From IMG/VR virus record IMGVR_UViG_3300037440_000319, positions 1-52,850 of that record: a DNA stretch of 52,850 nucleotides; one strand, given 5' to 3'. Under the pieces are notes generated by a model that was given only the letters and a program-made list of their open reading frames with translations, did not search any database and was not told the origin of the DNA. Positions 6,636 through 47,279 of the stretch are shown here, in pieces. The position numbers and the translations under genes are program-made. The DNA is from a virus. Its lineage: Duplodnaviria; Caudoviricetes. Each line of letters opens with the position of its first letter. The first letter of the stretch is position 1.

Positions 6636-7894
6636 GCGACCTCGCACGGCTGCTTGTTCGGCAACCGCCACCGGGGCTTCGTTTCGGGCAGGGCCGCGTA
6701 GTGTCATGGGACCCGAGTGACTTTACTCATCGCATCGACTGGAACGGGGTGATCCTAGAGAACATCCCTGTGTTCTCTGGGGTGGACGCACTCGGGTTCC
6801 TACCCGGCACACCTATCGCGCTGCTCGGCTACGACGCCAGCGGCGGCAAGGGCGTCACGCAGTGGTTCGTCTTAGGCCGACTTGCCCTGCCCGGCATTGA
6901 CACGCCGAACATGGTTGTGCGGGGCAGCAACCTCGTCGTTGACGGCGGACAGCTCATCGTTGTGGGTGCTGGCGGGCTGCAGGTCAACAGCGGGGGCGAC
7001 CTTGAGGTCAATAGCGGAGGTGACCTGGAGGTCAACAGCGGGGGCGACCTGAATATCAATGACGGCGGCAACCTGTTCGTCAACGACGGCGGTGACGTCC
7101 TCGTCCGCGACGGCGGCAGCATCGTCATTGAGGACGAAGGGCGCTGGGAGTCCCACTACGGCGACGGCACCGTGAGTGCCGCGATGGGGCCGATCTGGAA
7201 CCCCGGACTCACCGCGATCACCGACGACGGCATCCTGGTGCAGGACAACAATGCAGGCGGCAACCTAGACATCTTCCGCGCCCTGCGGGACCGGACCACC
7301 GGTAACAAGGACATATTCGTCGGCCAGGGCTCGGGTAATCCGGTCGACGAGTTCTCCGTCAACGCCGACATTCTCATCCTGAACCGGACGACCGGTGCAG
7401 GGGTTGTCGTGTCCACCGACACCACCACCGACCCGGCCAACATGCGCGTCGTGGGGAACCTGCAACCGATGCTGCGAGTCACGTCCGCGGCCAAGTACAA
7501 GGTCGACATCACCGACCTCGTGATCGACCCGCAGGCGGTGCTGAAGCTGCGGCCGCGAGCCTGGCGGGACGCCGGGCAGGTCCAGCAGGACCCGGACATG
7601 GACCGCTGGACGGTCGGGTTCGTCGCCGAGGAGGTCGCTGAGGCGGGACTGACTCCGTTCGTGGACTACGACAGCGACGACAACCCGGAGTCGGTGGCGT
7701 ACGACCGGCTGGCCGTTGCCCTGCTGGCCGTTGTGCAGGACCAGGAGACCCGGCTGCAATCGCTTGAGGCGCGGGTGGCTGCCCTGGACGGTGAGCAGGC
7801 TCCGCGAGTTGCCGTGCAGCCGACAGAGCTGCCGAAGCGGCGCTTCGATCCGCCAGTCCAGATGAGTCAGATCAGCCAGGATAGAGGGCGTTGA
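6632..7894 (+). CDS. Tail fiber/spike with C-terminal intramolecular chaperone (peptidase S74-like)
   Basis: SAAKYKVDI...LRPRAW...GFVAEEV...VAYDRL plus terminal coiled coil; Gly-rich 8-aa repeats. Confidence 0.82.
   Translation: MSDLARLLVRQPPPGLRFGQGRVVSWDPSDFTHRIDWNGVILENIPVFSGVDALGFLPGTPIALLGYDASGGKGVTQWFVLGRLALPGIDTPNMVVRGSNLVVDGGQLIVVGAGGLQVNSGGDLEVNSGGDLEVNSGGDLNINDGGNLFVNDGGDVLVRDGGSIVIEDEGRWESHYGDGTVSAAMGPIWNPGLTAITDDGILVQDNNAGGNLDIFRALRDRTTGNKDIFVGQGSGNPVDEFSVNADILILNRTTGAGVVVSTDTTTDPANMRVVGNLQPMLRVTSAAKYKVDITDLVIDPQAVLKLRPRAWRDAGQVQQDPDMDRWTVGFVAEEVAEAGLTPFVDYDSDDNPESVAYDRLAVALLAVVQDQETRLQSLEARVAALDGEQAPRVAVQPTELPKRRFDPPVQMSQISQDRGR
6971..7118 (+). repeat. 24-bp (8-aa) tandem repeat in the tail fiber gene
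   Basis: GGLQVNS-GGDLEVNS-GGDLEVNS-GGDLNIND-GGNLFVND-GGDVLVRDGG; DNA units resemble gaggtcaacagcgggggcgacctg. Confidence 0.85.
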
Positions 7895-8450
7895 TCGTCG
7901 CGACGTCTAGGTCGGTGAGCCCGTAGTCGCCGTCGTCGATGGTGCCGTTCTCGTCGCGGCGCATCACTGAATCCTGGTCGGTGTGCGCGAGACCTATCGC
8001 GTGCCCGATCTCGTGCACGATCACCTTCTGCCACAGATCCTCTGAGTTGTCCCGCTGCGAGTTGAGCCAGATGAAGCCGCCCGGCGCGAGCACTAGCAAA
8101 TCCTCGTGATCGGTGAACGAGTCCTCAGATGGGATGTGGCAGCCGTTCGGCCCGTCGCACGGCAGGTCGTCCGTCGCGACGAGCGGCAGCATCGGCAACC
8201 CGTCCGGGCAGTCCGGCCACAGGTACAGCGTCACATTCGTCTGCTCGTACTCGGCGACAGCATCGGCCACCGGCATTCCATCGGTGTAGTCGGCCACGCA
8301 CAGCTCCGGTGAGCGAGACGGTAGGTAGCCGTACACGTAGTCGCCGGGCTGTTCGTCGGCTGCGGCACGCATGCCGCACGCTGCCGCTGCCACCAGTAGC
8401 ATGATCAGTGTCAGTGACCGGGCGGGTACGCCAGTACTGGCGATCGTCAT
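7872..8450 (-). CDS. Exported matrixin-like (metzincin) zinc metalloprotease
   Basis: HEIGHAIGLAH and SVM Met-turn; hydrophobic N-terminus ending AAACG; RBS gaggag before ATG 8450. Confidence 0.8.
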   Translation of the reverse strand: MTIASTGVPARSLTLIMLLVAAAACGMRAAADEQPGDYVYGYLPSRSPELCVADYTDGMPVADAVAEYEQTNVTLYLWPDCPDGLPMLPLVATDDLPCDGPNGCHIPSEDSFTDHEDLLVLAPGGFIWLNSQRDNSEDLWQKVIVHEIGHAIGLAHTDQDSVMRRDENGTIDDGDYGLTDLDVATINALYPG

Positions 8451-8470
8451 GTGAGCCACTCTCCTCTCAG

Positions 8471-8500
8471 TTCGTTTCCTGATAAGACCAAAGTAGCACA
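8471..8500 (-). promoter_or_regulatory. Promoter/leader motif (extended -10 TGcTACTTT followed by GGTCTTATCAGGAAA)
   Basis: Near-identical to the motifs at 15371-15416, 30922-30965 and 50227-50270. Confidence 0.7.
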
Positions 8501-8596
8501 GCTGGTCCGCGGAGAGCCGTGCCGGTTCTTGACCACGCTGATTGTAGGCTGCTCGCCAACTGCCGGATTCAGGCCTGGTAAGGAACGGTCCGCATA

Positions 8597-9253
8597 GTGA
8601 TCCCACGCATCTTCCACACGTTCTGGGACGGGCCGCCGATCCCCGAGGAGTTCGTCGAGTATCGCAGGCGGTGGGCGGAGCTCCATCCGAGGTGGCGGAT
8701 TCTGGTCTGGTCTGATGCCAGCTACCAGCGGGAGGTTATGTCGGCCCGCACGTCCCGGTACTACCGCGACCCGGCCCGCTGGTCTCCCAGGAGCAACGTT
8801 TGGCAGTGGCGTGCGGACATTGCCCGGTACGAGATCCTGGAGAAGTTCGGCGGCGTGTGGATCGACGCGGACCTAGAGCCGCTGAGGCCGATCGACTCGA
8901 TCGTGGAGCGGTGCTCGGCGTTCGCGGCCCGCGAGGATCAGCGGAACGTCAACAACGCGTTCATGGGCTGCGAGATCGGCCACCCGTTCATCGTGGACGT
9001 CATGGCCGGGCTCGGGGATCGGATCGTCCGCAATCGGCACTTGCGGGTCAACAGGTCCATCGGTGCGGGGTACCTCACGGCGGTGGCACAGCGTCACGAC
9101 GACCTGCTTGTCCTGCCGTCTGAGCTGGTCTACCCGTTCTCGTTCAACGAGCTGCACAGGCGAGATGAGTCGTTCCCCGAGGCGTTTACGAAGCACCATT
9201 GGAACAATCGCACGCAGGCGAGGCGTCGACAGCTCGCGCTGAGGCGCCGATGA
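8597..9253 (+). CDS. Glycosyltransferase, GT32/OCH1-like (DXD)
   Basis: IPRIFHTFW, ADIARYEILEKFGGVWIDAD, NNAFMG, HHW. Confidence 0.88.
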   Translation: MIPRIFHTFWDGPPIPEEFVEYRRRWAELHPRWRILVWSDASYQREVMSARTSRYYRDPARWSPRSNVWQWRADIARYEILEKFGGVWIDADLEPLRPIDSIVERCSAFAAREDQRNVNNAFMGCEIGHPFIVDVMAGLGDRIVRNRHLRVNRSIGAGYLTAVAQRHDDLLVLPSELVYPFSFNELHRRDESFPEAFTKHHWNNRTQARRRQLALRRR

Positions 9254-20401: not shown

Positions 20402-20701
20402 ATGGTCCGGGACTTCGTCCTATCGCTCATCCGAACCTACATTCCGCTGGTCGTAGCCGGTGCGCTGACGTGGGTCGCACTCGCGCTCGACCTCGATCTC
20501 ACGGAGGACATCACTACCGGCGTCACAGCATTCGCCGTGCTCGCCGTCACCGGCCTCTACTACCTCATCGCCCGATTCCTAGAGACTAAGTGGACGTGGC
20601 TGTCCGTGCTGCTGGGGACACCGCCGAAGACGGCCGCGCCGACCTACGGGACCATCATCGAGGGCGAAGTAGTCCATGACGCTGAGGTTGCTGGTCGCTA
20701 G
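20402..20701 (+). CDS. Two-TM membrane protein, putative holin
   Basis: SLIRTYIPLVV...YYLIARFLE..W..L..LLG....P.Y pattern of actinophage holin-like proteins. Confidence 0.6.
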   Translation: MVRDFVLSLIRTYIPLVVAGALTWVALALDLDLTEDITTGVTAFAVLAVTGLYYLIARFLETKWTWLSVLLGTPPKTAAPTYGTIIEGEVVHDAEVAGR

Positions 20702-21080
20702 CTGGCGGCAGCTCGCAGCCTGCCGGGGCAGGGACACCGACGCGTTCTACGTCTCCAAGGATGTGCTCCACCCACCGGACGAGATCCGCGAGGTGTGCGA
20801 GTCCTGCCCCGTGCGGGCCGACTGTCTATTCGAAGCGCTCATCCACCGCGAGCAGGGCGTGTGGGGCGGCACGACCGAGAGACAGCGGCGACTACTGCTC
20901 CGCAGGTACCGGAGAGCGTCCTGCCCGTCGTGCGCCGGAGTCAACGTGCCGATGCTCGAAGGTCGGCAGGTCTGCCTCGCCTGCGGCCTGTCCTGGCTCG
21001 CCCTCAAGATCCGCACCGCGGAGGGTGTCCGAACGCTAGAGGTGGTTCATCCGAGCGGAGTAGAGTCGGCCCACACGTGA
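20676..21080 (+). CDS. whiB: WhiB family transcription factor with extra C-terminal zinc ribbon
   Basis: W...AAC, C..CPV...C, GVWGGTTE..R; then CPSC...CLAC. Confidence 0.9.
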   Translation: MTLRLLVASWRQLAACRGRDTDAFYVSKDVLHPPDEIREVCESCPVRADCLFEALIHREQGVWGGTTERQRRLLLRRYRRASCPSCAGVNVPMLEGRQVCLACGLSWLALKIRTAEGVRTLEVVHPSGVESAHT

Positions 21081-24803: not shown

Positions 24804-25050
24804 CCCGACGCAGAACCCGAGAGACATCTACCTAGAGGGCCGCCAGCGAGCCCGATCCAAGCAGATCCTGTACGACGGGAGCAAGTTCCCGATCTCGTTC
24901 GACCGCCAGACCCAGCAGCGGGTGGAGAAGCTCGCCGCCGCCTGGCGGGTTCCGAGGGCCGAGATGGTTCGCTATCTTGTCGCCTCAGCCCTAGACGCCG
25001 CAGAGGCAATCCCCATCCCATCATCAGATCAGAAGGAGGAAACGAAGTGA
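24796..25050 (+). CDS. Ribbon-helix-helix DNA-binding protein
   Basis: FPISFD...RVEKLAAAWRVPRAEMVRYLV. Confidence 0.6.
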   Translation: MPSPTQNPRDIYLEGRQRARSKQILYDGSKFPISFDRQTQQRVEKLAAAWRVPRAEMVRYLVASALDAAEAIPIPSSDQKEETK

Positions 25051-25664
25051 TCAAGACACTCATCGCCTTGGCAGCCGCGGTCGCACTTGTGGCCGGATGC
25101 TCGGGCGACGACCCGGAGAGACTCGCTGTCCGCGTGGAGCGGACGACCGAGGCAGAAGCAGAGCCGGACCCGGTGGACGAGCCGGAGCCGACTGCTGAGC
25201 CAGAGCCAGCCGAGCCCGAGCTGGACATGACCCCAGAGACGGTACTCGTCGAGGCCACCTGGGAGGAGGCCGGAATCATCCTCACCCTCGGCAACGTGCA
25301 GTTCGCGTCAGCCGAGTACCTCAACGGCCAGGGCCTGCTCCTGGAGGAGCACACCGCGACCGGCATCATCATCGTCGGCAGCATCCGCAACGACCGAGAC
25401 AAGGCCGTCGAATTCTACCCGAACCAGGGCACCCTCGTGGTGGGGGAGGACCAGTACGAGGCTTCGCTGTGGGAGAGCGACCTCGGCGGCACCGTCTACG
25501 ACGGGGTGTCTACCGAGGGTTTCATCCTGTTCGAGAGCTCCCGCGACATCGAGTGGTTCGACGACGTGGCCGAGATCCGGTTCCTGGCTCCCGGCGCGTT
25601 CGACCCGGACACGTTCAACAGCGTCACAGGCGACATCGACCTGACGCTGCACCTGCAGCGGTAG
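25047..25664 (+). CDS. Lipoprotein (DUF4352-like Ig fold)
   Basis: Lipobox VAGC, EP-rich linker, FYPNQGTLV, GFILFE. Confidence 0.75.
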   Translation: MIKTLIALAAAVALVAGCSGDDPERLAVRVERTTEAEAEPDPVDEPEPTAEPEPAEPELDMTPETVLVEATWEEAGIILTLGNVQFASAEYLNGQGLLLEEHTATGIIIVGSIRNDRDKAVEFYPNQGTLVVGEDQYEASLWESDLGGTVYDGVSTEGFILFESSRDIEWFDDVAEIRFLAPGAFDPDTFNSVTGDIDLTLHLQR

Positions 25665-25771
25665 GTCCGGCCGCCTGGCATCGTCCCTGCACTAGCGGCG
25701 GGCGGCGGTGCGAGCCGACCGGCTCACACATAACCGGGGGATCAGGAACCCCAGGAAGGAAACGAAGTCAG

Positions 25772-25921
25772 ATGTACGGAGAAACTCTGCCCCGGACGGG
25801 CATCGCGATCGGTGCCAGCGGGACTGTGCTGAACCTCTCCTGGCTAATTGTCGCGGCACTCGCGATCATCGTCGGCGGCGTGCTGCTGACCAGATACGGA
25901 AAGCGACACGAGAATGCCTAG
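25772..25921 (+). CDS. 49-aa stand-alone LPXTG sortase-sorting peptide
   Basis: MYGETLPRTG + hydrophobic helix + basic tail RYGKRH; RBS aggaagga; overlaps the GT2 start. Confidence 0.75.
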   Translation: MYGETLPRTGIAIGASGTVLNLSWLIVAALAIIVGGVLLTRYGKRHENA

Positions 25922-27173
25922 GGCAACTGCCTGGGCAGTCGTCGCGCTAACCGCTGCTCTTATCGCCGGGTTCCACCTGGATCAGTGGTCAGGCTCGTGG
26001 AACGCGGCGATGGTGTTCTATGTCATGGTCGCGGGCTGGCTACTGTGGACGCTCGCTGCGTCTGCATGGCACCCGCGCTATGTCGACCGGCCTATTTCAC
26101 CGGGGCATGTGGTCGTGATCGTGCCGGTGTTCAATGAGAAGCCTGAGGCACTCTACGACTGCATCCGCTCACTGATCCTGCAAACGCGACCACCTGAGCA
26201 GATCATCGTCATGGACGACGGCTCGGACATGCCGGTTATCCCGATCGATCTGCCGACTGTGGAGTGGTACCGGCAGGAGAATCGCGGCAAGCGGTGGGCT
26301 CAGATGGAGGGCCTGCGGCTCGCGGCTGCTGCTGAGTGGGCTGACTACGTAGTAACTGTGGACTCTGACAGCGTGGTTGCGCCGGACGGGATCGAGCAGC
26401 TCCTGCGAGCTATGTCAGATGAGAGGGTACAGGCCGCAACGGGAGCCTGCGTAGTTCGCAACCGCACAGACAGCCTGCTCACGCGAGTCGTTGATCTGGA
26501 GATCATGCTGTATAACGCGGTGATGCGGCGCGTCCGCTCAGTGGTCGGCGCGGTGGCCCCTACCTCTGGCCCGCTGGCGATCTACCGGGCCGAGATCCTG
26601 TGGGACAATGCCGAGGACTATCTCACTGAGGGCACCTACTCAGACGACCGGAGGCTGACGCATTACAGCCTGCTCCGAGGCCAAGTCGTAGCAGTTGACG
26701 AGGCAGTCGTTGAGACCGAGATGCCTGCCACGCCGCGGGCAATGTTCCGGCAGCGCACTCGCTGGTTCAAGGGCTACTGGCGGTATATGGGCTGGGAGAT
26801 CCGCAGCTTGTCAGGCTGGGCGTGGTTCCTGCGAGTGTGGAATCTCACGACGCTGACGCTCTACCCGCTGATCGTGGGGTTTGTGTTCGCTGCAGTGCCG
26901 CTCACCGGGGGTCTCGTGTACTGGCAGGCTATGCCGTACTGGCTCGGCCTGCTCTATGCGCTCACATCGCACTACATGGAGCGCCCAGGGCTGCCGCTGT
27001 GGAAGCGGCTTGTGACGTGGCTGACGTTGACTCCGCTGCTGGTCGTCGTCCAGGCGCTGCTGATTCGTCCAGCTATGTACTACGCCGTCACTCAAGTGCG
27101 GAACACAGACTGGGCTACCCGCGGAGCAAAGGTCCGCGGTCGTCACCGGAAGCTGGCCGAGTCTGCAGCATGA
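25914..27173 (+). CDS. Processive GT2 glycosyltransferase, hyaluronan synthase/NodC-like
   Basis: DDGS, GKR, VDSD, SGPLAIYR, DDRRLT, RQRTRW; TM helices at both ends. Confidence 0.88.
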   Translation: MPRATAWAVVALTAALIAGFHLDQWSGSWNAAMVFYVMVAGWLLWTLAASAWHPRYVDRPISPGHVVVIVPVFNEKPEALYDCIRSLILQTRPPEQIIVMDDGSDMPVIPIDLPTVEWYRQENRGKRWAQMEGLRLAAAAEWADYVVTVDSDSVVAPDGIEQLLRAMSDERVQAATGACVVRNRTDSLLTRVVDLEIMLYNAVMRRVRSVVGAVAPTSGPLAIYRAEILWDNAEDYLTEGTYSDDRRLTHYSLLRGQVVAVDEAVVETEMPATPRAMFRQRTRWFKGYWRYMGWEIRSLSGWAWFLRVWNLTTLTLYPLIVGFVFAAVPLTGGLVYWQAMPYWLGLLYALTSHYMERPGLPLWKRLVTWLTLTPLLVVVQALLIRPAMYYAVTQVRNTDWATRGAKVRGRHRKLAESAA

Positions 27174-27211
27174 GACCGTAGCTGGCAGGGGGGACAGATC
27201 CGGAGGAAGCC

Positions 27212-27850
27212 ATGAGGAAGATCGCACTCGCTGCTGCGCTCGCTGTGCTGGGTGTCCTGCTCGTCGCTCCGCCTGCCAGCGCGGAGTATGAGGGGGCACG
27301 CTGGTACGACAGTACCAAGACGATCTGCGTCGACACCACCAAGGTCGACAGCAGCGCCGCCCGCGCAGCGATGCACGAGGCGATCCGCGACATGCGGGAG
27401 CGCACTAAGCTCAAGCTGACCATCTCGGCCAGCAGCACCTGCAAGTCACGCGGCTACGGATACCGGGTCGAGGTGTACGACTACTACCTCGGCGGTCCGT
27501 CGAGCTGCTTCTACGGCTGCACGGACTTCCCTGGCGACTTTACCTGGAAGTCGTCGCTCAAGGGGCCGTGGGGCACTGGCACGTGGGTGTTCAAGAGCCC
27601 GGTGCGGATCAAGCTGAACCTGTCCAAGCTGAACGACCTATCTGCGGGCCGGAAGTCCAGCGTGGCCTCGCACGAGCTGGGCCACGCGGTGGGCTTGGAT
27701 CACAACTCGCGGTGCGCGTCGGTGATGCAGGCGTCGATGAGCGGGGCTGTCAATAGGGGCTGTACGATCTACCGCAACCTGACCTGGCGCGACCGCGTCG
27801 GCTACTGGTCGTCTGACCCCGGCATCAACCTGATCTATAGGTACGGGTGA
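27212..27850 (+). CDS. Secreted matrixin-like zinc metalloprotease
   Basis: Signal peptide ending ASA; HELGHAVGLDH; SVM Met-turn. Confidence 0.85.
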   Translation: MRKIALAAALAVLGVLLVAPPASAEYEGARWYDSTKTICVDTTKVDSSAARAAMHEAIRDMRERTKLKLTISASSTCKSRGYGYRVEVYDYYLGGPSSCFYGCTDFPGDFTWKSSLKGPWGTGTWVFKSPVRIKLNLSKLNDLSAGRKSSVASHELGHAVGLDHNSRCASVMQASMSGAVNRGCTIYRNLTWRDRVGYWSSDPGINLIYRYG

Positions 27851-27863
27851 CCGCGGCACGGCC

Positions 27864-28646
27864 TTATTCATCGGCTTTACACATGCTCGCGGGCATCCCG
27901 CCGATCACCTGCTCGATGTCCCCGTTCGCATCAGGCTTGTCGTAGGTGATGATCATGCGGCAGTCGCCGCCGTTGACGAACACGATGGAGACGATGCCGC
28001 GACCATTTGCGCCAGCGGGTCCGGGAACAGTCGAATCCTCACCGTCGTCGCCCCGGCACGCGTCGTCGGCGCAGAACCGCTGGAATGCAGCGTCGACCTC
28101 GGCTTGAGTCAGCGCGGGGGCATCGTCGCCGCGACAATCGTCGCGGGTGGCGCAGAAGGTCGCTAACGCGGAGTCGAGCTGTGAGGCGACTGCCGCGAAT
28201 ACCTGCTCAGTCGTCGGCGGCGGGGCATCTCTGCCTGGATCCGGTGGGTTTCGGGTCAGGTGCGCGGCGACTGCTGCGATCAGCTCGGAGCGGATGAGAC
28301 CGGGCCGCTCGGTCAGGACGGTCTCGACTGCGGCCTCGATCTCTTCGGCTGTCGGCGGCGGCCCTGGGATCGGTGCTGTCGGCTCTGACTCGACCCGCTC
28401 TGCCGTCCTGCACAGGTCGCCGAGTTCGCGGGCGATGACGCTGCGCCGCTCACACTCGACGCGGACCTGCGCGGCGAGCGCGGCGGCGTTGTCCTCAGCG
28501 AGCCGCAGCTCCTCCTCGGCGACCTGGCGGGACTCGCGCTCGGAGAACCTGTCGACGGTTGTCCACCCGACCAGGAGCACTACTACTACGAGAAGGACAA
28601 TGGTGATGATCTGGCCGCGGGGCAGCCACCGCTCCCGGATATTCAT
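27864..28646 (-). CDS. Membrane-anchored Pro-rich protein of the lysis cassette
   Basis: N-terminal TM, coiled coil, PGPPPT, repeated FC...C.GDD, short GXY stretch. Confidence 0.7.
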   Translation of the reverse strand: MNIRERWLPRGQIITIVLLVVVVLLVGWTTVDRFSERESRQVAEEELRLAEDNAAALAAQVRVECERRSVIARELGDLCRTAERVESEPTAPIPGPPPTAEEIEAAVETVLTERPGLIRSELIAAVAAHLTRNPPDPGRDAPPPTTEQVFAAVASQLDSALATFCATRDDCRGDDAPALTQAEVDAAFQRFCADDACRGDDGEDSTVPGPAGANGRGIVSIVFVNGGDCRMIITYDKPDANGDIEQVIGGMPASMCKADE

Positions 28647-28993
28647 CAGCGTCCCTCTTCCCGACTACTCTGCTCCATCATGCGCCGATACTTAGCCGCA
28701 GAGTCCTCAGCCTTCCACCGGGCGCGCCGCTCCCCCTCGACCGTCTCCTGATACTCGACGACCTCGGCGCGTGAGACACCGAGCTGCAGGCGAAGATCCG
28801 TGATCTGCCGATCGTGCCGGGTAATCAGCTTCTCGATCTCCTCTGAGTGCTGCCTGCGGAGAGCGATCAACTGGCGCTGATAGTCGCCGCGGTCACCGGA
28901 CTGCTGACGCATGAGATGAATGATCAGAAAGATCAGGGCAACGAGGACGCCACCGGGCGGAACCAGGACGGGCCACTCTGTTCCAAGGTCCAC
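28646..28993 (-). CDS. Membrane protein with coiled coil (lysis cassette, holin-like)
   Basis: Single TM plus coiled coil, downstream of the endolysin. Confidence 0.65.
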   Translation of the reverse strand: MDLGTEWPVLVPPGGVLVALIFLIIHLMRQQSGDRGDYQRQLIALRRQHSEEIEKLITRHDRQITDLRLQLGVSRAEVVEYQETVEGERRARWKAEDSAAKYRRMMEQSSREEGR

Positions 28994-29019
28994 ACGGCAA
29001 CCCTCGTCGTCTCATCTCG

Positions 29020-29373
29020 CTACTGGAGTACGTTCCAGGTCTGGCTGCCGACGACCCCGTCGACGTCGATCTTCGCCTTGATCTGCACGTACCGCACCCG
29101 GTCTGTCGTGCGCGGCCCGAAGTACCCGTCGAGCGCGAGCCGGGACAGGCGCGGGTTGAAGGCGTTGAGCGCGTCCTGCAGCTCCTGCACGTCGTCGCCC
29201 GCGGACCACCGGCCTACGGTGCGGGAGCCAGCCTCGACGCCCTTCTGATACGGCTCGTACTCCGTCAGCGGCTCGTAGGGGGCAGGGGTCTCGGCGTCGT
29301 CGTCGGCCTGCTCGGCTGGGGGGAGCTCCGGCTGGTCGTCGGTGCTCTGCTGTGCTTCCTCTGCGTTCTCCAT
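29020..29373 (-). CDS. Stand-alone peptidoglycan-binding domain protein
   Basis: GDDVQELQDALN...LDGYFGPRT...Q....DVDGVVGSQTW (PG_binding_1). Confidence 0.85.
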   Translation of the reverse strand: MENAEEAQQSTDDQPELPPAEQADDDAETPAPYEPLTEYEPYQKGVEAGSRTVGRWSAGDDVQELQDALNAFNPRLSRLALDGYFGPRTTDRVRYVQIKAKIDVDGVVGSQTWNVLQ

Positions 29374-29426
29374 GACTCCGAAGCGTAGGCCAGTAGCCCG
29401 GCCCTGCTTGTTCGCCGCGACGGCGC

Positions 29427-30659
29427 TTATGCGGGCTCGCTCGGGAACAGCGCGCCGAATCGCGCCAGTACCCGAGCCGCTATCTCATCCTCATCGACTC
29501 CTGAGACGTCGCGCAGCTCCTCGCGAACCGCCGCGACCACAACGTCGTCCACGAGATCCAGCCTGTCGGCCAGCGCAGCGCGCTCCAGCGTGGCGCTAGT
29601 GGCTACCTGGTCGATCCGCTGCAGCACCTGATCCAGCTCGACCCCGGCAGCCAGGGCCAACGCAGCGTCGATCTTCGCTTCGAGCTGGTCCAGACGGCGC
29701 GGAACGGTGTACCTGGCTGCCTCGGTGGTGGAGGTCACGTGGCTCGCTAGAGACCAGAACGGGTTCTCCGCCGCGGTGGCCGCGGACGGCGGTGCCTTGA
29801 CGATGCCGTCGGTGTTCAGGACCGCGTTCTGCACGTGGTTGTCGACGCCGAGGAGGATGGTGCGGATGTACTTGCGTGCCGCCATTCCCGTCTTGGTGCG
29901 CTGATCGACGGGAAGTGTTGAGGCTTCGTACGCCTCGTTAAGGATCTCCATCACGCCTTGGCGAACATCTGCAACGCTCACGTCGTCCTCCGTCGCTCCG
30001 AGATAGTACGGGGTCAACTCGTTGATCCCCTTGGTTGCCGCTGTGCCGACCGGGTGACCGTAGCCGAGCCGGTCGATCTTCCGGCCGATTTGCTTGAGAT
30101 CCGCCCACGTCGAGTGCTCTCCGTGCGAGGTCCGCGGGCGGCTCAGGAACCGGAGAGTACCAGCGTGGCAGCGGCCCATGAACTCGCGATAGGTCATCCG
30201 CTTGCCGGTGGCTCTGTTGGTGTAGGTCGCGTCCCACACCGCAGTCGAGAAGCCGCCCTCGTGCTCCCAGCCGAGCAGATACGGTCGGCCACCGTCGCGA
30301 GGGATGCGGAACCCGTCGATAGTCCACGGTCCACCCTCGCCGGGGTGGTTCGCCCAGTCCAGGCAGATGATGCGGGCGATCAGGTCCATGCCGCCGTAGC
30401 AGTTGGACAGCGGCGCCGGAATGCCGGGGCGGCCGTTCTTGACCACGCTTAGGCCGGGCGTCGGGTTTGACGCCGAAGGGTTGCTCGCAATGTGGTGGCC
30501 GAGATTCGCGACGAACGAGGTGCCGCCGTGCGAGCCGGTGGACACCCAGCGTCCGGAGCGCCCGATCATCATCTCGATCGAGACCTGGGGTACGCCACAG
30601 TCGAGCAGGTCGGCCTTGAAGTCGTTGGCGACTGCGAGGGCGGATGCCGGGGGCGGCAT
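29427..30659 (-). CDS. Endolysin, N-acetylmuramoyl-L-alanine amidase (Amidase_2-like)
   Basis: GHHIAS, GRPGIPAPL, ANHPG.G, GWEHE, HSTW...RKID. Confidence 0.85.
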   Translation of the reverse strand: MPPPASALAVANDFKADLLDCGVPQVSIEMMIGRSGRWVSTGSHGGTSFVANLGHHIASNPSASNPTPGLSVVKNGRPGIPAPLSNCYGGMDLIARIICLDWANHPGEGGPWTIDGFRIPRDGGRPYLLGWEHEGGFSTAVWDATYTNRATGKRMTYREFMGRCHAGTLRFLSRPRTSHGEHSTWADLKQIGRKIDRLGYGHPVGTAATKGINELTPYYLGATEDDVSVADVRQGVMEILNEAYEASTLPVDQRTKTGMAARKYIRTILLGVDNHVQNAVLNTDGIVKAPPSAATAAENPFWSLASHVTSTTEAARYTVPRRLDQLEAKIDAALALAAGVELDQVLQRIDQVATSATLERAALADRLDLVDDVVVAAVREELRDVSGVDEDEIAARVLARFGALFPSEPA

Positions 30660-30835
30660 CAGTCGAGCCCGTTGTCGGTGTCGTCGTCCGGGTCGATCGC
30701 CTCGCCGAGCAGCCGCCCTCTCTCAGTCTCCTCCTCGGTTAGTGCACCCTCCGGGTCGAGCCAGACGCCGGACTTGGGTGGCTCGTCTACCTGGGGTAGC
30801 TCGACGGGCTCCGCTATGTCCTTCGCTTCGTCCAT
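30659..30835 (-). CDS. 58-aa acidic protein leading the lysis operon (absent from the ORF track)
   Basis: MDEAKDIAEPVELPQVDEPPKSGVWLDPEG...DDDTDNGLD; RBS ggag; TGATG coupling to the endolysin. Confidence 0.6.
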   Translation of the reverse strand: MDEAKDIAEPVELPQVDEPPKSGVWLDPEGALTEEETERGRLLGEAIDPDDDTDNGLD

Positions 30836-33057: not shown

Positions 33058-33377
33058 GCGGGCGCATTGAGGTCCCGGAGGGCACCCCGGCAGATCACCG
33101 CTGTAAGCCTCCTGGCCCCGCCTTTCCGTCGCGCTGGGCAGAGCACCCAGTGGGGTCACGCTGGTTCTGCGACTGCGGCCAGGTGTGGATCGTCCGGCAC
33201 GTGCCTACGACAGTGCACGGGACGCAGGCTGTGGTCTCGCACCTGGAGTGGTTCCGCGAGTCGTGGCGGGAGCGCCGCCGTCGCCTCCGTGGCCGGGAGC
33301 GCCTGATCACACCGAAGCCAGCTCGCCCCCCGTCAGGGCCGAGTGGAGTCAGCCCATCGAAGGACGGGAGCAGATGA
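33054..33377 (+). CDS. Hypothetical Cys-rich protein
   Basis: HRC...WFCDCGQVW; GTGA coupling. Confidence 0.55.
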   Translation: MSGRIEVPEGTPADHRCKPPGPAFPSRWAEHPVGSRWFCDCGQVWIVRHVPTTVHGTQAVVSHLEWFRESWRERRRRLRGRERLITPKPARPPSGPSGVSPSKDGSR

Positions 33378-34132
33378 CCGAGCGCCGCATCGAGTACCTG
33401 CCGATTGACGAGATCCAGCCCGACCCGCGCAACCCGCGGGCGCACGAGTCGATTGAGGACGTCAAGGCTTCCATCCTGCGGTTCGGGTTCGTTGACCCGA
33501 TCATCCACGACGACCGCACCGGCCAGATGATCGCCGGTCACGGCCGCGTCGAGGCGCTCACAGACCTGCACGCACGCTGGCTCAAGGCCCCCAAGAAGGA
33601 CCGGGAGGTGCCGGGCGGCATCACCGCGGACGGGGACCGCTGGCATGCCCCGGTGATCGTCGGCTGGAGCTCTGCCGACGACGACGAGGCAGCCGGTCTG
33701 CTGATCGCGCTGAACCGCCTCACCGAGACCAGCAAGTGGATACCGGACAAGCAGCTCGCCCTGCTGAACGAGATCGCCAAGTCAGTCGAGGGTCTCGTGG
33801 GAGTGGGCTACACGGACGAGGATCGGGCCGCGCTGCAGCGGCTCGTAGAAGCCTCGGGGGAGGCCCTGGACGCCGCCGCCGAGTGGGCCGCGGCGGGGAT
33901 GCCCGAGTACAGCTCCGAGGATCTCCAGGGCGCGTACCGCACCGTGGTGCACTTCCGCACGATGGAGGACGCCGACAGGTTCTTCGTCGAGGTGATGGGT
34001 GGCCGGGATCGGATCTCGTACGTGTGGTGGCCCGAGCCTGACGGGCACCGCGGAATGAATATCGGCCGCCAGTGGGTGCACGACGAGAACGGGCAGCCCC
34101 GGCAGCAGGAAGAGGAGCAGGTCGGTGGTTAA
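33374..34132 (+). CDS. ParB/Srx-like N-terminal domain protein with C-terminal TAGT-associated domain
   Basis: PRNPRAH, FGFVDPI, IAGHGR.EA, IALNRL; C-terminal EW..GMPEY..E...Y...VHF...ED...F...VWWP. Confidence 0.82.
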   Translation: MTERRIEYLPIDEIQPDPRNPRAHESIEDVKASILRFGFVDPIIHDDRTGQMIAGHGRVEALTDLHARWLKAPKKDREVPGGITADGDRWHAPVIVGWSSADDDEAAGLLIALNRLTETSKWIPDKQLALLNEIAKSVEGLVGVGYTDEDRAALQRLVEASGEALDAAAEWAAAGMPEYSSEDLQGAYRTVVHFRTMEDADRFFVEVMGGRDRISYVWWPEPDGHRGMNIGRQWVHDENGQPRQQEEEQVGG

Positions 34133-35057
34133 TCCGCGGTTCCCGGTCTACATCCCGTCGAAGTCTCGCGCTGAGGTCGCGACGACGCCGAGAGAGCTGG
34201 ACCGGCTCGGCGTGCCGTACACGCTGGTCGTCGAGGAGGAGCAGTTCGACGACTACGCCCGCAGGTGGGGTGAGGACCGCATCTTGGTGCTCGACCCGAA
34301 GTACCAGCGCGACTACGTGACCTGTGAGGATCTGGGGAAGACGACCGGCACCGGGCCTGGCCCGGTGCGGAACTTCTGCTGGGACCACGCTATCTCGCAG
34401 GGCCATGACTGGTTCTGGGCAATTGACGACAACATCATGGTGTTCTACCGCCAGCATCAGAACCACGCATATCCGGTCGGGGACGGGACGATCTTCCACG
34501 CGATGGAGGAGTTCGCGACCCGGTACAAGAACACCGGGATGGTCGGGCCCGAGTACAAGATGTTCGTCCCGGCACGCCAGAAGCTCCCCCCGTTTCGGAT
34601 CAACCGCAAGCTGTGGTCCTGCTACCTGATACGGACCGCTCTGCCGCTCCGGTTCGAGTGCATCTACAACGACGACGTGGACATCATCCTGCGACTCATG
34701 AAGTCGGGCTGGATCACGGTCACGTTCCAGGCGTTCCTGCAAGACAAGATCACCACCCAGCAGCTTCCGGGCGGCTCGACGGAGCACCTGTACGAGAAGG
34801 AGGGGACGCTGGAGAAGTCCCGCGCTATCGTCCGCCGCCACCCCGACGTGGCCCGCGTGACGTGGCGGTTCAAACGGTGGCACCACTACGTCGATTACTC
34901 CGGCTTCCAGAACATGCAGCTGCTCCCTGACCCCGAGTACGTGCCGTCCGGCGTGACGTACAACTTCCGGGAGATTGAGCAGCCTAATCGGATCTATGCG
35001 GGGATTCAGAGATACGGGCAGGACAGGGGCTACGCGCCGCCCGGAGGCCGACAGTGA
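34125..35057 (+). CDS. GREB1-like / TET-associated glycosyltransferase (TAGT)
   Basis: PVYIPSKSR, GPGPVRNFCWDHA, DDNI, SCYLI, YNDDVD, K..TQ..PGG.T, RWHHYVDY. Confidence 0.82.
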   Translation: MVNPRFPVYIPSKSRAEVATTPRELDRLGVPYTLVVEEEQFDDYARRWGEDRILVLDPKYQRDYVTCEDLGKTTGTGPGPVRNFCWDHAISQGHDWFWAIDDNIMVFYRQHQNHAYPVGDGTIFHAMEEFATRYKNTGMVGPEYKMFVPARQKLPPFRINRKLWSCYLIRTALPLRFECIYNDDVDIILRLMKSGWITVTFQAFLQDKITTQQLPGGSTEHLYEKEGTLEKSRAIVRRHPDVARVTWRFKRWHHYVDYSGFQNMQLLPDPEYVPSGVTYNFREIEQPNRIYAGIQRYGQDRGYAPPGGRQ

Positions 35058-45842: not shown

Positions 45843-47279
45843 GTGACGGTCACTGACCTGGAGTACGCAGCCCGCCAGTTCGAGTCGCAGACCATGCGCC
45901 TCGGCCGCCCACCGCTGGAGCCTCATCAGCGACCCCCGGAGGCGCTGCTCAAGCGTGAGAAAGATGTCTGGCTGATAGAGGGGGGCCGCGGCTCTGGCAA
46001 GACCGAGGCGATGGCCCGCTACTTCTCCCGGTACATGCGAGACAACCCCGGCGTGCGCGGCCGCATCATCGCCCCGACGCTGGGCGACGCGGTGGAGTCC
46101 TGCATCACGGGCGTGTCCGGGCTCCTCGCTGTAGACGACCAGGTGGTGTGGCGAGCCGGTGGAGCAGGTGGCTCGCATGTGAAGTGGCCGAACGGCTCCG
46201 AGGCCCTGGTGATCGGGACGCACTCGCCGCTGGACGTTGACCGGCTCCGGGCAGGAGGCAACCGGCATCTGGACTGGTGGGAGGAACTGGCTGCGAACAG
46301 GCAGCTAGGGAAGCCGGACGAGAACGGGAACCTGGACGAGAAGAGCGCTTGGGTACAGGCGAGCCACGGGCTGAGGCTCGGCCTGTTCCCGCACACCATC
46401 GCCTCCACCACCCCGAAAACCACCAAGGCTTACGTGGTGATCCGTGCGCTCCCGGAAATAGTGCGCATCCACGCCACCATGTACGACAACCCGTACTCGT
46501 CCCCCGGCTGGCGAGCCAAGATGGAGGACCGCTACAAAGGCACCCGGACCGGCCGCCAGGAGATCGAGGGCATCCTGCTGGAGGACATCGAGGGCGCGCT
46601 GTGGACTCTGGAGCTCATCACCGCCGCGCAACTCCGCCGCCCGCTGCCGGACCTGGCTCGGATCGTCACTGTCGTGGACCCGTCCGGCTCGGAGGACGGC
46701 GACGCGACCGGCATCGTGACCATCGGCCGCGACAAGGATCACGTGCTGTTCGTCCTCGCGGATGACACCACGCAGGGTACGCCGGAGCACCGCTACGAGA
46801 CCGCGTGCCTCGCGGCCGCTAGGTGGGGCGCGGATGAGATCCTGTACGAGTCGAACTACGCCGGGGATAACGTGAAGGCTCTGCTGCGGTCGAGCTGGCA
46901 GCACCTCGTCCGGGAGGGCGAGATCGAGGAGGAGAAGATCCCCCGGCTGTCTAAGTCCAACGCGAAGGGCTCCAAGGCGCAGCGGGCCGAGCCGGTCGTG
47001 GGGTTGTACGAGCAGCACGCGAAGGGCACGGAGCGGATCTGGCACGCGCATCCGCTGCCGCTGCTAGAGGACGAGCAGACGACGTGGGAGCCGGACGCGG
47101 ACTGGTCGCCGAACCGCATCGACGCCATGGTGCACGGGGCTCGGAAGCTCGGCACCTGGGTGGGCCGCCAGCAGAACCGGGACCGCACGAAGCGGGCCGC
47201 GTCGACACTAGCGAACGCGTCGGTGATGTCCGGGGGCACGGGGCGCTCTCCGCTTCCGCCGATGCGGGGCGCTCGCTAG
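45843..47279 (+). CDS. terL: Terminase large subunit
   Basis: LEPHQ.PP, Walker A GGRGSGKT, Walker B WWEE, RQEIEG, nuclease VDPSG, SPNRIDA. Confidence 0.93.
   Translation: MTVTDLEYAARQFESQTMRLGRPPLEPHQRPPEALLKREKDVWLIEGGRGSGKTEAMARYFSRYMRDNPGVRGRIIAPTLGDAVESCITGVSGLLAVDDQVVWRAGGAGGSHVKWPNGSEALVIGTHSPLDVDRLRAGGNRHLDWWEELAANRQLGKPDENGNLDEKSAWVQASHGLRLGLFPHTIASTTPKTTKAYVVIRALPEIVRIHATMYDNPYSSPGWRAKMEDRYKGTRTGRQEIEGILLEDIEGALWTLELITAAQLRRPLPDLARIVTVVDPSGSEDGDATGIVTIGRDKDHVLFVLADDTTQGTPEHRYETACLAAARWGADEILYESNYAGDNVKALLRSSWQHLVREGEIEEEKIPRLSKSNAKGSKAQRAEPVVGLYEQHAKGTERIWHAHPLPLLEDEQTTWEPDADWSPNRIDAMVHGARKLGTWVGRQQNRDRTKRAASTLANASVMSGGTGRSPLPPMRGAR

Follow-up and report, generated by a model that had tools for sequence, protein, structure and literature searches.

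A sortase-signal-like micro-protein encoded in overlap with a hyaluronan-synthase-like glycosyltransferase in an actinophage and in Actinomycetota

Some processive membrane glycosyltransferases of family 2 (GT2) are encoded beside a small membrane protein, and in the two described pairs that come closest to the one presented here, IcaA-IcaD and PgaC-PgaD, the small partner is a membrane helper needed by, or aiding, the synthase. The subject of this work is a likewise arranged pair in a viral contig of 52,850 nucleotides (IMG/VR record IMGVR_UViG_3300037440_000319, positions 1 to 52,850; this whole stretch is referred to as the window), in which an open reading frame (ORF) for 49 residues, the micro-ORF, encodes a micro-protein that resembles a sortase sorting signal and overlaps the start of a gene for a hyaluronan-synthase-like GT2. 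We propose that the two genes form a single module making a surface polysaccharide, the micro-protein being a dedicated membrane partner of the synthase and, in this lineage, also a sortase substrate. Taken as a whole, this proposal has about an even chance of being correct, and its first element, namely that the micro-protein and the GT2 act together, is judged highly probable from the sequences compared below. IcaD and PgaD differ from the micro-protein in that they are larger and lack a sorting signal, and they are unrelated to it in sequence: when the micro-protein was compared with Pfam (E up to 0.01) and NCBIfam (E up to 0.1), only anchor models were matched, and no IcaD or PgaD. On the side of the synthase, the best NCBIfam models for the window GT2 are NodC (120.2 bits, with a cut-off of 550) and PgaC_IcaA (74.1 bits, far under the equivalog cut-off of 422.3), and by these scores it is an equivalog of neither.

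To our knowledge, sortases act only as anchors of full-size secreted proteins, and we know of no described substrate that has no signal peptide and only a 5-residue cargo. From ordinary substrates the micro-proteins differ in having neither a signal peptide nor a passenger, with only 5-19 residues before the motif, and in being always coupled to a glycosyltransferase. What they share with actinobacterial substrates, such as the chaplins ChpA-C, which PMC5148588 presents as class E sortase substrates with LAXTG, is the pentapeptide, the uncharged stretch and the basic tail. Another point of comparison is the GspA-LcpA-SrtA system of Actinomyces oris, for which PMC6381275 describes a glycan-bearing polypeptide fixed to the wall by the housekeeping sortase. 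There, according to the same source, an LCP phosphotransferase puts the glycan on a full-size secreted protein, whereas here a 49-residue micro-protein accompanies a synthase-type GT2 and no LCP gene lies nearby. Annotators already know of small LAXTG proteins that stand alone, as the curated NCBIfam family NF058583 (“LAXTG motif-containing small protein”, about 54 residues) attests. The scores nevertheless indicate that the micro-proteins form a distinct family, since the six of ten scanned that gave any match to NF058583 reached 9.3-17.4 bits against a cut-off of 65; in four genomes searched, no match to NF058583 above the cut-off was found.

As regards the glycosyltransferase, class I hyaluronan synthases (HAS), including the Chlorella virus enzyme, are the closest described enzymes: they share DxD, GDDR-like, QxxRW and gating-loop-like motifs with the window GT2, and both the Chlorella virus enzyme and the window GT2 are virus-borne synthases. 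The window GT2 differs from them in lacking transmembrane helices 5 and 6 (TMH5 and TMH6) and has an identity to them of only 20-22%. We know of no solved HAS with a separate small subunit and, for the synthase-dependent polysaccharides (hyaluronan, cellulose, chitin-like polymers and poly-N-acetylglucosamine), of no covalent fixing to the Gram-positive wall. A full-text literature search, with most subscription journals outside its scope, found no paper on a pair formed by a sorting-signal micro-protein and a GT2 synthase.

Organisation of the overlapping pair

The pair was first picked out in a sequence-only reading of the window, in which a 49-residue ORF consisting almost only of a sortase signal was said to overlap the start of the GT2 gene. 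This description is confirmed, the ORF itself beginning with the ATG at 25772; the start given then, 25741, takes in the Shine-Dalgarno-like stretch. The features of the pair are the following.

25753..25767, plus strand: purine-rich Shine-Dalgarno-like stretch, with AGGAAGG at 25753-25759, 12 nt before the micro-ORF start; read from the sequence
25772..25921, plus strand: micro-ORF, 49 residues, from ATG at 25772 to the stop codon TAG at 25919-25921
25787..25801, plus strand: LPRTG codons (residues 6-10), a sortase-type pentapeptide
25835..25888, plus strand: predicted membrane helix core (residues 22-39), with Trp24 and Gly36; limits set by eye from hydrophobicity
25889..25918, plus strand: basic C-terminal tail (residues 40-49, with R41, K44 and R45), in which Arg41 is nearly invariant
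25914..25921, plus strand: ATGCCTAG, in which the GT2 start codon overlaps the micro-ORF stop codon; an 8-nt overlap, read from the sequence
25914..27173, plus strand: membrane-embedded processive GT2, hyaluronan-synthase-like, 419 residues, with a GT-A domain between two N-terminal and three C-terminal helices
26751..26765, plus strand: QRTRW codons (residues 280-284), the QxxRW motif of processive GT2 synthases
27111..27125, plus strand: WATRG codons (residues 400-404), at the place of the HAS gating-loop motif and followed by only 15 residues

The micro-protein is laid out as MYGET, then LPRTG, then 30 uncharged residues that include the membrane helix, and finally the basic tail, which is expected to be cytoplasmic according to the positive-inside rule. 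Homologous ORFs are also preceded by purine-rich stretches, in the form GGAGG or GGGAGG. The micro-ORF and the GT2 gene are, as read from the sequence, translationally coupled through the ATGCCTAG overlap, and a stop/start overlap recurs elsewhere: it measures 4-17 nt in three related viral contigs (L001-L003; L numbers denote the loci of our set) and in nine Streptomyces-type loci, 4 nt in the cultured Streptomyces phage Kromp, and it reaches about 82 nt in a type found in metagenome-assembled genomes (MAGs) in which the sorting motif is missing. In this motif-less MAG type (L006-L011; for instance, the two ORFs at 2756-2914 and 2833-4155 of L006), the overlapping genes lie in different frames and the C-terminal tail of the micro-protein is almost invariant. 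When positions 25000-28000 of the window were scanned for promoters and terminators, no sigma-70-like promoter was found, and the one terminator-like site, located inside the GT2 gene, is no more than shuffled sequences give.

The second gene had been described as a processive membrane GT2 with D,D,D,RQRTRW motifs, and this too is borne out. The protein matches the Pfam models Glycos_transf_2 (E 7.8e-21), Glyco_tranf_2_3, Glyco_trans_2_3 and Chitin_synth_2, and contains DDGS at residues 101-104, DSD at 150-152, DD at 244-245 and QRTRW at 280-284, with D101, D102, D150, D152, D244, D245, Q280, R283 and W284 invariant in all 19 GT2 sequences compared; W400, T402 and R403 are invariant in the GT2 alignment as well. 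Its resemblance to hyaluronan synthases is upheld both by sequence and by fold. A GT2 profile run against solved structures finds the Chlorella virus HAS (E 1.5e-18) and Xenopus HAS1, and an AlphaFold2 model built from 19 sequences (predicted local distance difference test, pLDDT, 79.3; predicted template-modelling score, pTM, 0.81) has the Chlorella virus HAS as its best match (Foldseek template-modelling score 0.68-0.70, E 9.5e-20), the VIA comparison of the two giving Z 34.3 and a root-mean-square deviation of 2.4 Å over 357 residues. Cellulose and chitin synthases rank after it as structural matches.

The structural alignment ends at about residue 398 of the model, corresponding to HAS residue ~450-490. 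In Xenopus HAS1, PMC11750622 describes a gating loop that joins interface helix 3 (IFH3) to TMH5, with TMH5 and TMH6 following. Past the GT domain, the model of the window GT2 shows three helices, compared with four (TMH3-6) in the solved HAS enzymes, and TMH5 and TMH6 are taken to be absent because the protein ends 15 residues past WATRG. Only invariant columns and structural ranges were used in this comparison, a residue count after QxxRW by regular expression being noisy (the pattern also matched an earlier site). The two missing helices make a helix supplied in trans plausible, though not proven.

Conservation and distribution of the pair

Comparative sequence data indicate that the micro-ORF is a real, conserved gene that belongs with one clade of GT2 genes. 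In the three related IMG/VR contigs, L001-L003, whose GT2 proteins are 68-70% identical to that of the window, an ORF of 48-50 residues occupies the same overlapping position, with an identity of 51-69% and with LP[KR]TG in all three. The ratio of nonsynonymous to synonymous substitution rates (dN/dS, Nei-Gojobori) is 0.26 for the window micro-ORF against each of these contigs, 0.11-0.20 among the three and 0.08-0.40 within the MAG type, and by this measure the micro-ORF is under purifying selection.

A profile scan in which one genome was taken per species yielded a set of 80 loci, and a profile search of 401 Actinomycetota genomes gave a match at E ≤ 1e-20 in 29; two unpublished genomes are counted in this tally only and were otherwise left out. 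Micro-ORFs were called in 63 loci by an automated rule, according to which a same-strand ORF had to end within ~170 nt of the expected GT2 start, to contain a hydrophobic window and to be basic at its end. A quick maximum-likelihood tree was then computed for 57 GT2 rows, with support values from the Shimodaira-Hasegawa-like approximate likelihood ratio test (SH-aLRT) only, leaving out four rows of under 300 residues, the two unpublished loci and L104, which duplicates L021. One GT2 clade in this tree (SH-aLRT 98) has the micro-ORF in 32 of its 35 rows, the exceptions being L018, which is cut by the contig end, L019, which has a candidate further upstream, and L028, which has none. Its sister clade has the micro-ORF in none of 22 rows, and a looser scan, upstream as well as downstream of 21 sister-clade loci, gave nothing in 20 and an unrelated downstream ORF in one. 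This looser scan was the control for ORFs that arise by chance in high-GC DNA.

A profile was needed to find distant members, because a single-sequence search with the window peptide returned only the peptide itself. Built from 23 micro-proteins, the profile retrieved 62 small-protein clusters from a collection of 5.8 billion proteins, and the conservation of the micro-protein at the protein level reaches down to 30% GT2 identity. By exact look-up, RefSeq has Streptomyces members as “hypothetical protein” of 53 residues, homologues being entered by gene callers and RefSeq alike as hypothetical proteins of 53-56 residues, and some members bear the automatic UniRef name “LPXTG cell wall anchor domain-containing protein”. 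A protein-atlas look-up for the micro-protein gave only unnamed small-protein clusters below 0.9, which are leads and not evidence, and the members of 270-610 residues in the look-up clusters, considered as long forms of the micro-protein, proved to be unrelated proteins. A search for fusions of micro-protein and GT2 gave 8 matches, seven of which are upstream-extended calls of the MAG-type micro-ORF. In P0101 (610 residues, from an ENA metagenome), a truncated MAG-type micro-protein stands in frame with the GT2; this candidate for a natural fusion was rejected, since its C-terminal part is also frame-shifted and an assembly error is the probable cause.

The pair is present in the chromosomes of Streptomyces, among them strains of S. 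rochei and S. ardesiacus, of Kitasatospora and of Actinoalloteichus, and in many actinobacterial MAGs, and in the cultured Streptomyces phage Kromp it corresponds to gp78 (annotated as “hypothetical protein”, with LASTG) and gp79 (“glycosyltransferase”). The earlier idea of a system made by phages has to be given up, as this module of two genes belongs to the chromosomes of Actinomycetota and is carried by phages. The gene surroundings, for which 101 neighbouring proteins from 26 loci were scanned, vary between loci: an integrase adjoins the pair in the viral contigs L002 and L003, and the Streptomyces contexts are mutually unrelated. Since the neighbours differ from locus to locus, the two genes seem to travel as a unit. 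Loci bearing the motif are bare two-gene cassettes in unrelated surroundings; motif-less loci usually lie within a larger polysaccharide locus, with a UDP-glucose/GDP-mannose dehydrogenase-family gene in 4, genes resembling glycoside hydrolase family 26 (GH26) in 8 and a polysaccharide deacetylase in 1. In the MAG type of L006-L011, a UDP-sugar dehydrogenase and several GH26-like genes belong to the locus; the window pair has no such genes adjoining it.

Two of the neighbours deserve separate mention. Directly after the pair in L001 (4271-5071, plus strand) lies a gene for a secreted staphylococcal-nuclease-like protein that has a hydrophobic stretch with a basic tail at its end, and that may be another surface-anchored protein. 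In the Actinoalloteichus locus L014 (4702-6495, plus strand), a GH20 hexosaminidase that has a chitin-binding module (CBM5/12) is encoded after the pair, a weak hint that the polymer could contain N-acetylhexosamine.

The putative sorting signal and its competing readings

In 23 aligned members, Met1, Trp24, Gly36, Leu39 and Arg41 (window numbering) are invariant or nearly so, and a Tyr stands at position 2 or 3. Among the database clusters of at least 45 residues, the N-terminal Tyr is found in 58 of 60, the other two being a truncated and a frame-fused call. As to the pentapeptide, the 32 micro-proteins of the tree comprise 12 with LAxTG, 6 with LPxTG (18 in total with L[PA]xTG), 1 with IAATG and 13 with none; in the database clusters, the motif is present in 22 of the 25 outside the MAG type and in none of the 35 of the MAG type. 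A lack of LPXTG conservation in homologous loci had been named as the outcome that would refute the sequence-only reading, and the reading withstands this check: in the phage clade all four loci (the window and L001-L003) have LP[KR]TG, and the Streptomyces type and Kromp have LAxTG, the class E sortase signal, instead. More precisely, LAxTG occurs in the Streptomyces, Kitasatospora and Actinoalloteichus members and in phage Kromp, and LPxTG in the phage clade and two MAG lineages, so that L[PA]xTG appears on six branches of the tree, some of them deep (the phage clade, L094, L097, L093, Kromp and the Streptomycetaceae/Pseudonocardiaceae clade). Class E sortases of Streptomyces recognise LAXTG, as stated in PMC5148588, and because LAxTG is the form present in Streptomyces, the variants are taken to be matched to their hosts.

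The position of the motif is not fixed. It starts after 5 residues in the window, 8 in L097, 13 in one Streptomyces subtype and 18-19 in L094 and L093, with changing flanks. In every case an uncharged stretch and then a basic tail come after it, the arrangement also seen in nine bona fide LAxTG proteins from a single Streptomyces genome. The fit to the host, the recurrence on six branches and the retention despite a shifting position argue that the motif is selected where it is present. By a rough hand estimate, which was not computed, the odds of an L[PA]xTG arising by chance in peptides so composed would be ~1 in 100 per lineage.

In the working that we propose for the module, the micro-protein would insert into the membrane with its N-terminus out and its basic tail in, without the help of a signal peptide, which small N-out membrane proteins usually do not have; the positive-inside rule suggests this way of insertion, and small phage coat proteins offer an analogy. 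Within the membrane it would work with the cut-down HAS-type synthase, probably supplying part of what the two missing helices gave. In the phage (LPxTG) and Streptomyces (LAxTG) lineages, the housekeeping sortase of the host would then cut after Thr9, and the nine N-terminal residues, including the conserved Tyr, would become linked to peptidoglycan. For the window peptide, the chances that a sortase cuts it seem evenly split on what its sequence offers. The purpose would be wall attachment of the synthase product, or of the peptide that this product starts on, which is the simplest one to suppose because the Tyr is the only conserved feature of the nine residues and the only partner is a polymerising glycosyltransferase. 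Motif-less lineages would keep the product at the membrane, and in the phage the module would act as a conversion gene altering the host surface.

That a glycan is attached to the micro-protein peptide at all is a tentative idea, which we consider rather unlikely. Its most specific form is a peptide-primed, sortase-anchored polysaccharide, in which the polymer would start on the conserved N-terminal Tyr as a bacterial counterpart of glycogenin-type priming, and this is at best a one-in-several prospect. If priming of this kind took place, the thin Gly/Ala-rich stretch would let the N-terminus reach the synthase channel or leave through it, and the chain would be held by the membrane helix of the micro-protein in motif-less lineages or, after sortase action, by a 9-residue peptide stub on peptidoglycan. 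Among the roles that the sequence-only reading had listed for the peptide, those of primer or anchor and of synthase subunit are ranked highest.

A number of observations weigh against the proposal. A canonical motif is missing from 13 of the 32 micro-proteins and from all 35 MAG-type clusters, and the idea that such lineages simply lack sortases was rejected, given that sortase genes are present in nine of the ten genomes searched for them; sortase therefore cannot be a requirement for the core role of the micro-protein. A similar segment rich in Gly, Ala, Ser and Thr, [ILV]A[STG]G, persists in the motif-less type, so that the pentapeptide could be a packing feature that merely resembles a sortase site. 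In the window peptide, which has no signal peptide and only 5 residues before the motif, the anchor hidden Markov models score under their cut-offs (PF00746 at 18.3 bits for a cut-off of 20, TIGR01167 at 15.1 for 15.9), with alignments that cover residues 22-48 only, that is, the helix and the tail without LPRTG. By hand count, 30 residues separate its motif from the first basic residue, compared with 22-27 in the nine LAxTG proteins of one pair-carrying Streptomyces genome, a genus that may not be the host of the window phage; the same count gives 23 in the L024-type, one Streptomyces subtype. Besides, gp78 of Kromp has no N-terminal Tyr, none of the 101 neighbour proteins from 26 loci is a sortase or LCP gene product, and the sister GT2 clade is equally short and yet has no micro-ORF, from which it follows that the missing helices alone do not call for a partner. 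Co-folding of the GT2 and the micro-protein from their alignments, run without controls, scored 0.00 and counts neither for nor against the pairing.

The explanations opposed to our proposal rank in the order of a plain accessory subunit, a sortase-gated switch, a sortase decoy and a non-gene. As an accessory subunit, the micro-protein would stabilise or activate the synthase as IcaD does for IcaA and PgaD for PgaC, and L[PA]xTG would be a by-product of helix packing that is never cut. Much of the above speaks for it: the features conserved throughout the family are Met1, the Tyr, Trp24, Gly36, Leu39 and Arg41 and not the pentapeptide, motif-less members live in genomes with sortases, the look-alike segment, the sub-threshold anchor scores and the long spacing all fit, and the synthase is without helices found in the solved HAS enzymes. 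It accounts poorly, however, for a motif that recurs on six branches in the form appropriate to the host, with LAxTG in Streptomyces, and that is kept despite a shift of up to 14 residues and changing flanks, since a packing motif would not be expected to move; the hand estimate for chance occurrence also stands against it. We regard this explanation as a serious but doubtful one. The same conservation of the motif would equally suit a regulator gated by sortase, whose cleavage would switch the synthase on or off or couple it to sites of wall synthesis, with the C-terminal peptide staying with the enzyme. Retained sorting-signal fragments act as signals in streptococci, and the conserved Trp, Gly and basic tail would indeed stay in the membrane fragment after the cut. 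Such a switch would nevertheless discard the N-terminal Tyr together with the wall-linked peptide and leave its conservation unexplained, and motif-less lineages work without it, which makes it improbable.

The sequence-only reading had also considered a phage-made decoy, which would occupy or poison the host sortase and strip the wall of its anchored proteins, the GT2 being a mere neighbour. A peptide that is almost purely a sorting signal and is carried by phages would suit this purpose, but strict coupling to the GT2 in non-phage genomes fits it poorly: the majority of members sit in the chromosomes of Streptomyces and other actinobacteria, they are always coupled to a GT2, a third of them have no motif, and translational coupling ties the dose of the peptide to that of the synthase. 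A decoy is thus very unlikely. Least credible of all is a chance open frame ahead of the GT2. Spurious ORFs are common in high-GC DNA, here with 66% G+C, and the first single-sequence search found only the peptide itself; against this stand protein-level conservation down to 30% GT2 identity, dN/dS well below 1, the 62 database clusters recovered by profile and the absence of the ORF from all 22 sister-clade loci, and we give this explanation hardly any weight. The reading that we prefer remains that of a two-gene polysaccharide module with a dedicated membrane partner, which in the phage and Streptomyces lineages would also be a sortase substrate.

The phage and what the pair may mean

The window, with 66% G+C and a CheckV completeness of 62%, is the record of a tailed actinophage. 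Its host is taken to be an actinobacterium because, among cultured phages, Streptomyces phage mu1/6 has the nearest terminase, with 40% identity. The window proteins that were scanned included no integrase, and a blastn search of the region of the pair against cultured phages gave no match. The pair lies between the replication genes and a leftward gene block, and neither of the two genes that flank it is conserved with it. The main landmarks are listed below.

120-2048: tape measure protein
18.5-23.6 kb: Erf, replication initiator and DnaB
25047..25664, plus strand: upstream neighbour of the pair, 205 residues, with a lipoprotein-like N-terminus; from sequence, phrog_3727 (function unknown), lipobox by eye
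27212..27850, plus strand: downstream neighbour of the pair, 212 residues, secreted matrixin-like zinc metalloprotease (Pfam Peptidase_M10, E 4.1e-7)
27864-30835: leftward gene block, including an endolysin-like peptidoglycan-binding protein
45843-47279: terminase

The matrixin-like zinc metalloprotease gene that directly follows the GT2 (27212-27850, plus strand) is one of two in this phage, the other (7872-8606, minus strand; likewise Pfam Peptidase_M10) lying among the tail genes. A second glycosyltransferase, of the soluble type (8597-9253, plus strand; Pfam Gly_transf_sug with a DXD motif, plus Caps_synth), adjoins the tail genes and may be an enzyme of virion glycosylation. The early region contains a WhiB-family transcription factor gene (20676-21080, plus strand). 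Finally, at 33185-35057 (plus strand), a TET-associated glycosyltransferase (Pfam TAGT, E 9.5e-36) comes after a ParB-like/methyltransferase-like gene (PHROG ParB-like partition protein), and this stretch looks like a DNA hypermodification module.

A near-bare sorting signal locked to a synthase gene joins two fields, that of sortases and that of synthase-dependent polysaccharides. If the reading of the micro-protein as a primer or anchor were true, it would be categorically new, as it would provide synthase-dependent polymers with a covalent attachment to the wall that requires neither a lipid carrier nor an LCP enzyme, and phages would be moving a surface-conversion cassette between hosts. 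The plainer reading as a subunit would also have its consequences, since a new obligate small subunit of a cut-down HAS-type enzyme would define an unannotated family. In either case the system is testable, given that Kromp and several Streptomyces strains carry the pair. For phage biology, the pair represents a candidate module of lysogenic conversion or of surface remodelling at the time of infection in actinophages.

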